Below are positions 48,160-50,606 of a stretch of DNA of 64,000 bases, in pieces. Both the position numbers and the translations under genes were made by a program. The stretch comes from a virus, in IMG/VR virus record IMGVR_UViG_3300032893_000002, positions 110,668 to 174,667 of that record; one strand, written 5' to 3'. A model generated the notes under the pieces. It saw only the letters and a program-made list of their open reading frames with translations, had not been told where the DNA came from and searched no databases. Within the stretch, counting starts at the first letter, position 1. Every line of letters starts with the position of its first letter.

Positions 48160-49032
48160 CTATGTAGAATGATACTCCTCAAGTAGTTTGTCAATACTGT
48201 TAACAACAAGCAACGAAGTTGTGCTGTTTCTATGTCTCGTAACATCAGGACTAAGAAAAGAATCTGTACAGTACACAGCTCGAAAAATGGACAAAGGGTC
48301 AAGTCCTCTTGAAAATATGCCGTGCGTAACATACAGAAACAAATCTACAGGAGCTTCAGTTTGTTTCTTTATCTCCTGTGCAATTCCTACAAATGTTCCT
48401 CCGCCATCACATATATCGTCAACAATTAAAACTTGACGAGTTGTAATTTTGGGAACTTCGAATCCGCCAAGAACACCTGTTGCGGGATTACGTTTCTTCT
48501 TACAATTATCCGTTTTGACATCCTTTGGCAAAGCATACCGATGCAAAGAACCTTCGTCAGGCAGTAGAATTGTTAAATCCTTTTTGCTAGGAAAAGTGTT
48601 TACGATAGACGTAATCAATTCATCGACTTTGATACTAACAAGGTTGGCGATATGCCGTTTTGCAACTGATGAATGAACATCAAAAGTCAAAACCTTATCG
48701 CATGCCATCATATCTATATGCTCGCCATAAACACCGATGCCGAAGCAATCAGCATCAGTAAATCGTCTATCTGCTCGAGCGTAAGGCAGATAAGGTAGAA
48801 CTAATGTTAAATACGGAGGTCTCCTGCCATTAATTACATACTTAATTGCGTCAATAAGCAACGCTGTCGGCATAAGACTTGTACGCGAGACGACACGTAC
48901 TTCGTCTGCTTTATCGACAAGATCCGCCTGCGCCCTTGTCAAGCGGATCTGATGTTCCCCGGCAGGATATTGAATTCGTTGGAAAAATCTACCTTCATCT
49001 TCCGGAATATGGATCGTGTGAATATTTTTCAC
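48160..49032 (-). CDS. Ribose-phosphate pyrophosphokinase-family protein (Prs, or phage ADPR-pyrophosphate synthetase Adps)
   Basis: PRPP/ribose-5-P binding loop VLIVDDICDGGGT; 290 aa. The start overlaps the stop of the upstream NAMPT-like gene. Confidence 0.75.
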   Translation of the reverse strand: MKNIHTIHIPEDEGRFFQRIQYPAGEHQIRLTRAQADLVDKADEVRVVSRTSLMPTALLIDAIKYVINGRRPPYLTLVLPYLPYARADRRFTDADCFGIGVYGEHIDMMACDKVLTFDVHSSVAKRHIANLVSIKVDELITSIVNTFPSKKDLTILLPDEGSLHRYALPKDVKTDNCKKKRNPATGVLGGFEVPKITTRQVLIVDDICDGGGTFVGIAQEIKKQTEAPVDLFLYVTHGIFSRGLDPLSIFRAVYCTDSFLSPDVTRHRNSTTSLLVVNSIDKLLEEYHST

Positions 49033-50606
49033 GCTCTCACTCGCTTTCTAATTTCAGCAAAGTTTTCTGTTACAAGAAGTTCGCCGTTGTGCAAAACCTT
49101 TCTAAATGCACACTTATCTAAAGCTTCAGGCGTACTTTCTTGTTTGACAAAGTAAATAGGCTTTTCTTCAGTGGATTCTTCTGTTCTGTAAACAGCAGGA
49201 ATTCCCTTGAGTGATTTCTTAAAGGCTCCTTTCTGGTCATAATCCGTAACAGGGTCTTTAAAGATAGCGCAAATGTTATCATTCGCATCACGAATTCCTG
49301 TCGCTTTCATCGCCCACGCATATTGATCTCTTGTCGTATATTCGTAAGTAAACGACCCGATACCAAATACCATGTTAAAAGGCGAGAGTTTCTTATCGTT
49401 TACAAGTCTTTCCAAAATTGCTTCAGCTCGTTCTGTTGTAATGCCGTCTCCATAGATTAATCCCGCACTATTAATCAGTGGGAGCATTCCAGGCCGATCC
49501 GTGGTTCCCATTGCTCCGGCTAGAATTTCCATTGCTCCGTAAAATGCAGGATGATTATTTAACCACATGGGATATTTTGTGTTTGGCACATCTGCATAAT
49601 CAGGGTTTCCTGTAACGATTCTAACAGGATCTCCTGAATCTGGGCGAATTACAACTTTCCCCGGACGTGCTTTGATCGTCTCTCTGAGCTTCGGCATATA
49701 ATCTGTCAACACGCGCCACAGATCCCATGTATCAGAGACAATGGACAGTATCCCTTCTGGATATACTTCTGTGATCAAGCGTTTGAATGTTTCAAATTCT
49801 GTTTCTGCGCCGCCCGCGCACATAACAGAATGTTCAGTTGCATCGACACTTCCGCCGTCACTTAGATTGCCTCCATAGAACTGCTTTGCTTTCAGAATAG
49901 CAACGGCTGTATCGGTTCCGGAAAAGCTAAGCAGATGACCCATTCCTGATAAAATAGCATCATCGCGCCCGGACATTCCGCGATCGCTAAAATCATGTCC
50001 CTGCCAATCAATAAAAGACAAGTCTTTCTCGCCGGCCCGCTGCGCCCATTTTGTAAAAATCTTCCGGAAGCGTTGAGCAGTTGTTGCAGACGTGCTGGCT
50101 TTCCACAACATGTTGGATAAATCTGTTTCCAGGTAGTTAGGCAGCCAGAATGCGTGTTCTGCTGTATTTGTAATCAGCAGCGGAGGAACACCGATTGGTA
50201 CATTTACTCCTTCGGGAAGAGAATAAATGTCGATTGGAAGATAACCTTGACGATGCAGACGTTGAATATGTGAAACATACACTTCTTTCTTTCCCATCGT
50301 CCCCTTGATAAAATCGGTATATTCACGAACGACATGTTCTTCAGGACAGGAGAAGAAATACTTATCCCACATATACATTAACTTCTTCATGTAGTAGTAC
50401 TGTCCGCCAAACCATACTACATGTTTTTGATCTAGTAGGCGCGATGCCCGAGGAGTCCAGTTTGACCAGATCTGTTTCGTTCCCTTTGGATATTGAATAA
50501 CGTGTCCGAACTTGTAGAAATCCACGTCAAACAATGGATTTTCATACATAGGTTCTTCCATAAGTTTGTAGAAAGCAGACTTTTCACTAAGAGTTTCGAC
50601 AGTCAT
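49029..50606 (-). CDS. Nicotinamide phosphoribosyltransferase-family protein (NadV/NAMPT or Namat)
   Basis: 525 aa; VVIRPDSGDPV phosphoribosyltransferase type II motif; the N-terminal YK ... H region is NAMPT-like. Confidence 0.75.
   Translation of the reverse strand: MTVETLSEKSAFYKLMEEPMYENPLFDVDFYKFGHVIQYPKGTKQIWSNWTPRASRLLDQKHVVWFGGQYYYMKKLMYMWDKYFFSCPEEHVVREYTDFIKGTMGKKEVYVSHIQRLHRQGYLPIDIYSLPEGVNVPIGVPPLLITNTAEHAFWLPNYLETDLSNMLWKASTSATTAQRFRKIFTKWAQRAGEKDLSFIDWQGHDFSDRGMSGRDDAILSGMGHLLSFSGTDTAVAILKAKQFYGGNLSDGGSVDATEHSVMCAGGAETEFETFKRLITEVYPEGILSIVSDTWDLWRVLTDYMPKLRETIKARPGKVVIRPDSGDPVRIVTGNPDYADVPNTKYPMWLNNHPAFYGAMEILAGAMGTTDRPGMLPLINSAGLIYGDGITTERAEAILERLVNDKKLSPFNMVFGIGSFTYEYTTRDQYAWAMKATGIRDANDNICAIFKDPVTDYDQKGAFKKSLKGIPAVYRTEESTEEKPIYFVKQESTPEALDKCAFRKVLHNGELLVTENFAEIRKRVRA

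Follow-up and report, generated by a model that had tools for sequence, protein, structure and literature searches.

A probable NARP1 module with Namat-first gene order in an uncultured large phage

What might a phage gain from a gene for a relative of ribose-phosphate pyrophosphokinase (Prs) that begins on the very stop codon of a gene for a relative of nicotinamide phosphoribosyltransferase (Nampt)? Such a pair lies at 48160–50606 of a 64,000-nucleotide stretch of a viral metagenome record (IMG/VR record IMGVR_UViG_3300032893_000002, positions 110,668 to 174,667), the whole of which we call the window. An earlier note on this DNA had interpreted the pair as NAD+ reconstitution pathway 1 (NARP1), in which NAD+ is rebuilt from ADP-ribose. 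After following up this interpretation we consider it very likely that the pair is a NARP1 module of an uncultured ~180-kb phage, the NAMPT-fold protein being a putative nicotinamide ADP-ribose transferase (Namat) and the PRPS-fold protein a putative ADP-ribose pyrophosphokinase (Adps). The interpretation is supported by a clamp motif and clade membership in the case of Namat, by the donor loop and clade membership in the case of Adps, by the adjacency of the two genes, and by the lack of a gene for nicotinamide mononucleotide (NMN) adenylyltransferase (NMNAT) in the window.

NARP1 was described in 2024, has been reported in ~4% of phages, and both of its enzymes have since been structurally characterised. 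We infer the enzyme activities and the counter-defence role of the present pair from characterised homologues (10.1101/2024.02.11.579819; PMC12774641; PMC13586617), according to which the pathway would run as follows. A host NADase defence of the SIR2, TIR or SEFIR type would cleave NAD+ into ADP-ribose and nicotinamide. Adps would then pyrophosphorylate ADP-ribose at its terminal ribose, using the β,γ-pyrophosphate of ATP, to make ADP-ribose pyrophosphate (ADPR-PP), and Namat would exchange the pyrophosphate of ADPR-PP for nicotinamide, returning NAD+ directly; neither an NMN intermediate nor an NMNAT would be required. NARP1 would thereby offset NAD+ depletion by defences of these three types, and the locus would imply that NAD+-depleting defences are present in the host population.

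Layout and coding of the gene pair

Both genes are on the minus strand. The putative Namat gene (49029–50606, 525 amino acids, ATG start) is the upstream member and the putative Adps gene (48160–49032, 290 amino acids, GTG start) the downstream one, and the two share four nucleotides, GTGA in the coding strand (49029–49032, minus strand), in which the GTG start of the latter and the TGA stop of the former interlock. The co-oriented, overlapping arrangement is thus as the earlier note had it, and so are the two motifs by which it had recognised the families: residues 201–213 of the Prs-like protein, reading VLIVDDICDGGGT, form the loop associated with phosphoribosyl pyrophosphate (PRPP), and residues 321–327 of the NAMPT-like protein are RPDSGDP (49626–49646, minus strand). 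A four-nucleotide overlap is found in two independent relatives as well, as GTGA in an 8-kb ENA contig (L101), where Adps is 87.5% identical at the amino acid level and the GTG start is retained, and as ATGA in L004. Because the overlap is conserved in relatives, translational coupling is reasonable to infer, and we think that the pair is probably transcribed as one unit in which GTGA ties the translation of Adps to that of Namat, with Namat made first. A scan for promoters and terminators around the pair gave nothing convincing; consensus matches did not exceed shuffle expectation, which makes the scan uninformative.

The start of the Namat gene allows some latitude. Translation might alternatively begin at an internal methionine, M16 or M20, and the L004 relative begins at the equivalent of residue 22. 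Against this caveat stands a Shine-Dalgarno-like AAAGGAA (50612–50618, minus strand), which by our reading of the sequence is placed 6 nucleotides 5′ of the ATG at 50606. Both genes are real and constrained by purifying selection, since the ratio of nonsynonymous to synonymous substitution rates between the window and L101 is 0.06 in the NAMPT-like gene and 0.12 in the Prs-like one.

Membership in the two broad families is far beyond chance. The NAMPT-like protein matches PHROG 448 (E 1e-156) and the Pfam NAPRTase family (E 1.5e-27), and scores 436 bits against NCBIfam PRK09198, for which the cut-off is 405; the Prs-like protein matches PHROG 619 (E 1.4e-56). These same assignments, however, open the way to a conventional salvage route of the kind known as NARP2 or NadV-type, in which the Prs-like protein would make PRPP, the NAMPT-like protein would make NMN from it, and an NMNAT of the host, or of the phage itself from the ~116 kb of the source contig outside the window, would adenylylate the product. 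Database names and models do read ribose-phosphate pyrophosphokinase and nicotinamide or nicotinate phosphoribosyltransferase, and the catalytic cores are common to Prs and Nampt. The choice between salvage and NARP1 has to be sought in features of the two proteins that go beyond family membership.

Adenine clamp, donor loop and the salvage alternative

The hallmark of Namat, as set out by Lan et al., is an adenine "selectivity clamp" added to a conserved Nampt core (PMC12774641). The core is entirely conserved in the window protein, D29, Y31, F206, R209, D232, R321, D323 and R426 corresponding to D13, Y15, F189, R192, D215, R306, D308 and R399 of Namat of Bacillus phage SPbetaL1. R321 and D323 belong to the RPDSGDP catalytic-core motif; R306 is essential in SPbetaL1 Namat (10.1101/2024.02.11.579819; PMC12774641), but Nampt has this motif too, and it therefore does not separate one enzyme from the other. 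The clamp is more telling. Its helix motif (SCH) is GSFTYEYTTRD in the window protein (residues 417–427; 49326–49358, minus strand), against GSFTYQYNTRD in SPbetaL1 Namat. Its loop (SCL) carries in Namats an adenine-stacking residue that may be Arg, Lys or Tyr, Arg40 in SPbetaL1; both HMMER and MAFFT alignments place WTPRASR of the window protein under WTPRTSR of SPbetaL1 and so make Arg56 (50439–50441, minus strand) the equivalent of Arg40. This position discriminates weakly, as Lys or Arg is also found at the aligned position of some Nampts.

For a wider comparison we used the NAMPT-like proteins of 80 IMG/VR loci with an Adps-like gene together with four phage Nampts, three of which (phiN3, CcrKarma and BcepSauron) are each encoded directly beside an NMNAT gene while the fourth (VAC13) stands alone. 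All four phage Nampts have GGxLLQxxxRD where Namats have the clamp motif. The residue at S418 is in this state in 70 of 70 Namat-side sequences and is Gly in all six on the Nampt side; F419 and Y423 are aromatic in 68 and 53 of the 70, respectively, and in none of the six. In a neighbour-joining tree (76 sequences, 484 columns, 200 bootstraps) the split between Namat and Nampt has 100% bootstrap support, with the window protein on the Namat side together with the proteins of SPbetaL1 and Vibrio phage ICP1. The top matches in the Protein Data Bank (PDB), 9w5w and 9w5x (E 1.5e-115, 390 bits), are structures that we take, judging by residue numbering and sequence, to be those of SPbetaL1 Namat in PMC12774641, and the scores to Nampts are 166 bits (Xanthomonas) and ~144 bits (human). 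Identity is 44% to SPbetaL1 Namat and 43–46% to characterised Namats. Both the clamp, which the NMNAT-linked Nampts do not have, and the fully supported split from these Nampts speak against the salvage route. The window's Namat also differs from the characterised ones by a clade-specific insertion of ~13 residues after RPDSGDP and possibly by an N-terminal extension of ~20 amino acids.

We note two loci, L046 and L087, that are exceptions to an otherwise clean association between Adps and the clamp. In each, the NAMPT-like gene follows an Adps-like gene and lacks the aromatic clamp (GGLLLQQHNRD and GGLLVQNHSRD, respectively); both proteins fall with the Nampts in the tree despite the Adps-like neighbour, and there is no NMNAT in the flanks fetched for these loci.

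In the Prs-like protein the discriminating part is the pyrophosphate (PP), or donor, loop. In ICP1 Adps a remodelled loop extends from Cys215 to Ser220 and the remodelling is family-wide (PMC13586617). The window protein has DDICDGGGTF here (residues 205–214; 48391–48420, minus strand), aligned to D212–F221 of ICP1 Adps, with which it shares DDICDG. Cys, Gly and Phe at ICP1 positions 215, 217 and 221 are found in 73, 75 and 76 of 77 Adps-like sequences, respectively, and in none of eight bacterial Prs, which have I/V, T/S and L/I/M instead; put as a pattern, the loop reads C-D-G...F in the window and I-D-T...L in Prs. The Prs models point the same way. Against TIGR01251 the protein scores 85.3, below the cut-off of 113, as does characterised SPbetaL1 Adps with 106; against the equivalog Prs models it scores 34–75 where cut-offs are 296–536; and three Pfam domains are all under their gathering scores. 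Failure to reach any Prs cut-off, in combination with the Adps donor loop, is a further argument against the salvage route.

A neighbour-joining tree of this family (85 sequences, 258 columns, 200 bootstraps) contained the 77 Adps-like proteins and the eight Prs, all of the latter from PLSDB apart from that of E. coli K-12; four came from chromosomes or from records of chromosome size (E. coli, Aeromonas, Sinorhizobium and Bacillus) and four from plasmid records (Phocaeicola, Streptomyces, Burkholderia and Rhizobium). The comparison of the Prs-like protein with Adps and housekeeping Prs, proposed in the earlier note, came out on the Adps side: the protein clusters with ICP1 and SPbetaL1 Adps, apart from all eight Prs, in 100% of bootstraps. 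No PRPP-synthetase product could be measured with SPbetaL1 Adps (10.1101/2024.02.11.579819), which shares the window protein's side of the tree, and this too counts against salvage.

Other residues say less. The catalytic β-hairpin Lys is present as K179 (K185 in ICP1, K162 in SPbetaL1), and so are the acceptor residues R86, F91, H120, D159, D205 and D206, equivalent to R87, F92, H121, D161, D212 and D213 of ICP1 Adps. These are necessary but not discriminating, because most are common to Prs, and class I housekeeping Prs/PRPS, which has the same fold, likewise has the RxDRR loop, the His of DxHS, PDxG, the catalytic-loop Lys and the DD ribose-binding pair. The earlier note had looked to retention of all ribose-5-phosphate-binding residues as a sign of conventional salvage. 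The residues are indeed kept in the window protein, but ICP1 Adps too retains the ancestral acceptor residues Arg87, His121, Asp161, Asp212 and Asp213 (PMC13586617), and since Adps keeps what is common to Prs in this respect, their retention does not discriminate. The parts that have changed in Adps are the donor loop, the regulatory loop and the C-terminus (PMC13586617).

At the C-terminus, the terminal EES-x-S segment is absent from the window protein and is present in four of five housekeeping Prs tails. In PRPS1 this segment contributes to allosteric site 1. Loss of the C-terminal α11–α12 filament and allosteric module is a published Adps trait. An AlphaFold model of the window protein (predicted local distance difference test score 94) has the PRPS fold, and a Foldseek search with it returned PRPS structures alone, with TM scores of 0.75–0.78; the copy of the PDB that was searched, extending to April 2026, contains no Adps structure.

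The third place in which to look for salvage is the gene for the missing step. Pfam scans of all window open reading frames (ORFs) of at least 150 amino acids found no cytidylyltransferase-type NMNAT domain, and phmmer and hmmsearch with four NMNATs against the six-frame translation of the 64 kb found none either (best E 0.29), in agreement with the earlier note's own reading of the window. There is also no NMNAT in the flanks of the clade relatives. Two published observations count against salvage from another direction: NARP1 of Escherichia phage Bas63 functions in a pncC nadR double-deletion host, and no phage with both NARP1 and NARP2 appears in the same work (10.1101/2024.02.11.579819).

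Several points nevertheless weigh against assigning the pair to NARP1, and a few of these favour salvage directly. The NMNAT search covered 64 kb of the ~180-kb source contig. Namats keep some PRPP-dependent NMN synthesis in vitro (PMC12774641), for which reason the role might be a mixed one. Identity of the Prs-like protein to the Adps of SPbetaL1 and ICP1 is 23–25%, no more than the 24% to E. coli Prs; we rejected pairwise identity as a classifier for this reason, and it is the tree topology, together with a few signature positions, that carries the Adps assignment. Both trees are simple neighbour-joining trees on Kimura-corrected p-distances, with only eight Prs and six Nampt sequences as outgroups. 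Outside the signature positions of the donor loop, A218, A219 and F223 of ICP1 Adps are all Gly in the window protein, A218 and A219 being backbone contacts in ICP1 Adps (PMC13586617). Truncation of the C-terminus is partial, the tail after the TH motif having 55 residues compared with 40 in ICP1 Adps and 65–67 in Prs, and the AlphaFold model predicts a single terminal helix at 280–289. Weighing these points against the clamp, the donor loop and the two tree positions, we regard conventional salvage as very unlikely and continue with NARP1 as the preferred interpretation.

Gene order, neighbouring ORFs and related modules

Linkage of the two genes is the rule. A Namat homologue lies within 4 kb and on the same strand in 77 of the 80 IMG/VR Adps-like loci, in agreement with the 97% linkage reported by Osterman et al., and the pair is kept together in the window's clade (L101, L004, L010, L011 and L013). 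Gene order is more uniform than the window would suggest: Adps precedes Namat in 72 of the 77 linked loci and follows it in five (~6%), namely L009, L010, L011, L013 and L065. The first four of these count among the five IMG/VR loci most closely related to the window and, with the window and L012, form a clade that has 100% support in the tree of Namat and 90% in that of Adps. L012 sits inside this clade yet has the usual Adps-first order, and in L010 and L011 a small ORF is inserted between the Namat and Adps genes. The earlier note had called the architecture exactly that of NARP1; this stands for the adjacency of two genes on one strand and fails for their order. We note that the published definition of NARP1 includes same-strand immediate vicinity and does not include gene order. 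Read in this way, the locus is a further NARP1 copy, from a novel lineage of phages, and the one feature in which it really varies is its minority gene order.

Among characterised systems, NARP1 of SPbetaL1, Bas63 (genes 79–80) and ICP1 (NrsA/NrsB) likewise consists of two genes on the same strand, for a PRPS-fold and a NAMPT-fold protein; the SPbetaL1 and ICP1 proteins were used directly in our comparisons and SarahDanielle, an Ounavirinae relative, served as proxy for Bas63. The window proteins belong to the same clades as these references in both trees, share the Arg40 equivalent with SPbetaL1 Namat and the catalytic Lys with ICP1 Adps, and differ from the latter in their longer Adps tail. 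The operons of Bas63, SPbetaL1, ICP1 (NrsAB) and the mycobacteriophages all run from Adps to Namat, unlike the window, where Namat comes first and the genes overlap by 4 nucleotides. NARP2, consisting of Nampt (NadV) and Nmnat (NatV) and known from Vibrio phage KVP40 and, in our set, phiN3, CcrKarma and BcepSauron, has the same NAMPT-fold catalytic core and is thought to share the purpose of NARP1, restoration of NAD+ during NADase-based defence. It differs in the GGxLLQxxxRD of its Nampts, in having NMNAT beside them or co-occurring, and in the lack of Adps, whereas the window combines the clamp with Adps and has no NMNAT.

Bacterial chromosomes offer another comparison. The prs-nadV-nadM operon of Acinetobacter (L002) and NARP1 of Paenibacillus foliorum (PMC12774641) are chromosomal and run from Adps to Namat. 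The Acinetobacter operon also places a Prs-like gene next to a NAMPT-like gene, has the signatures DDICDGGATF and GSFTYNYLTRD, and its proteins fall on the same side as those of the window in both trees; there the pair is followed by a bifunctional NMNAT/ADP-ribose pyrophosphatase, a third gene that the window does not have. Judging by these signatures and tree positions, the prs-nadV pair classically known from Acinetobacter may be of the NARP1 kind, with an NMNAT/ADP-ribose pyrophosphatase added to it in this operon. The operon (prsA_2-nadV-nadM, L002 3090–6307) looks chromosomal although it is on a contig filed as "Acinetobacter phage MD-2021a", and its neighbours, fepC, an AraC regulator and a TauE exporter, look bacterial rather than phage-like.

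Could the module be larger than two genes? Macro-domain phosphatases occur in 15% of NARP1 operons (10.64898/2026.01.28.702374) and RyR-domain glycosidases in some (10.64898/2026.05.28.727677), giving the extended forms NARP1-AP (Adps-Adpp-Namat) and RyDEP-associated NARP1, which have the same Adps and Namat core. One may then imagine that an unrecognised accessory gene in the tightly packed chain, for example a 211-amino-acid ORFan or the small Cys-rich ORFs downstream, handles non-canonical NAD+ breakdown products. The spacing would permit this: the ORFan (50628–51263, minus strand) ends 21 nucleotides upstream of the Namat start, ORFs 3′ of Adps overlap one another by 1–4 nucleotides, and a homologue of a 102-amino-acid ORF of the window (47530–47838) sits between Namat and Adps in L010. 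The searches, however, gave no encouragement. No Macro (PF14519, PF01661, PF20016) or RyR (PF02026) domain was matched in Pfam at E up to 1 in nine ORFs within ~2 kb around the pair, and no Macro, RyR, Nudix or phosphatase domain was found with Pfam or PHROGs in 13 ORFs within ~2 kb on either side (46231–52576). The ORFan matches no Pfam, PHROG or NCBIfam family, has one relative only among 5.8 billion proteins (80% identical, on a 1.4-kb contig), and is not present in the NARP1 loci of relatives. With no family match and a single relative, we set it aside as a candidate accessory gene. The 102-amino-acid ORF was rejected as a conserved NARP1 partner on the ground that its homologue is ~40 kb away from NARP1 in the L004 phage, showing that the linkage is not conserved. 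We thus hold an extended module to be most improbable.

The proposal that the overlapped Namat-first order of the clade reflects altered function and not just a neutral reshuffling, or that the upstream ORFan is a new accessory enzyme, we likewise find highly doubtful; if it were true, the ORFan as accessory would widen the range of NAD+ breakdown products that can be recycled. The plain two-gene NARP1 that we prefer would be expected to have a gap in its coverage: the product of aRES is ADPR-1″-phosphate (10.64898/2026.01.28.702374), and as no Adpp is present, the NARP1 of the window is expected to fail against this defence.

What is gained from one more copy? The overall picture of NARP1 is left unchanged and the value of the locus is modest in this respect. 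Nevertheless, the pair adds an uncultured and very divergent lineage of large phages to those with NARP1, and the comparison is an independent check, on unrelated metagenomic data, of the recent rules for the Namat clamp and the Adps donor loop, which in our sample part Adps-linked from NMNAT-linked enzymes almost cleanly. Annotation rules based on operon structure should allow for a Namat gene that comes first and overlaps Adps.

The phage and other genes of the window

A protein identical to the Prs-like one is recorded for a 180,030-bp JGI metagenome contig; the next relative after it is in a 175,952-bp IMG/VR viral genome, where rIIB adjoins the pair. A nucleotide search with the pair against 50,697 phage records gave nothing, and the window's family A DNA polymerase (PolA) is at most 30% identical to that of any cultured phage. 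Contig size, the lack of a nucleotide match and the distance of PolA lead us to consider the window part of an uncultured, divergent ~180-kb phage. The minus strand holds ~113 of the 129 window ORFs. Replication and nucleotide genes include PolA with an N-terminal uracil-DNA-glycosylase (UDG) domain, a RecA/UvsX-like protein, a gp32-like protein and a clamp loader, and further genes encode dCMP deaminase, FolE, QueC and several GIY-YIG and HNH homing endonucleases.

A 231-amino-acid protein (14440–15135, minus strand) has a NADAR domain (PF08719, E 4e-15; PHROG 1017, E 1e-30), a family linked to the metabolism of NAD and ADP-ribose. A homologue lies near PolA in a related 176-kb phage (L102). 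It is possible that this genome has here a second counter-defence gene related to ADP-ribose.

PolA itself (20632–23133, minus strand) combines exonuclease and polymerase domains with an N-terminal domain of the UDG superfamily (PF03167, E 3e-24). The UDG-PolA fusion is also found in L102, and the top match in a cultured phage is just 30% identical.

GTP cyclohydrolase I (29012–29650) and QueC (33575–34297), both on the minus strand, suggest 7-deazaguanine synthesis. Between them are a GIY-YIG endonuclease and an 881-amino-acid protein (30414–33059) with a Major Vault Protein shoulder domain (PF11978, E 6e-21), which is unusual in a phage and has no PHROG match. A 154-amino-acid protein with an HD hydrolase domain of the SpoT/RelA type (60698–61162, minus strand; PF13328; TIGR00691, E 1e-13) may be a hydrolase of (p)ppGpp or of another alarmone.

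Cargo unusual for a phage is also found at 428–4106, where GC content is slightly raised (0.42–0.46). This region encodes, all on the minus strand, an ABC-transporter ATPase (428–1309), a permease-like protein with a weak BPD_transp_1 match (1281–2063) and a 605-amino-acid protein with a C-terminal OmpA peptidoglycan-binding domain (2289–4106).

Five homing-endonuclease-like ORFs, three GIY-YIG and two HNH, are scattered over the minus strand (7256–8041, 10117–10701, 26585–27202, 29595–30359 and 46488–46928). The last of these, a GIY-YIG ORF in which endonuclease domains are the only ones matched at E up to 0.01, is the one near the gene pair, at a distance of ~1.2 kb on the downstream side of Adps; the close relative L101 does not have it. 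The window has a single tRNA gene, for tRNA-Thr with anticodon TGT (55894–55969, minus strand).

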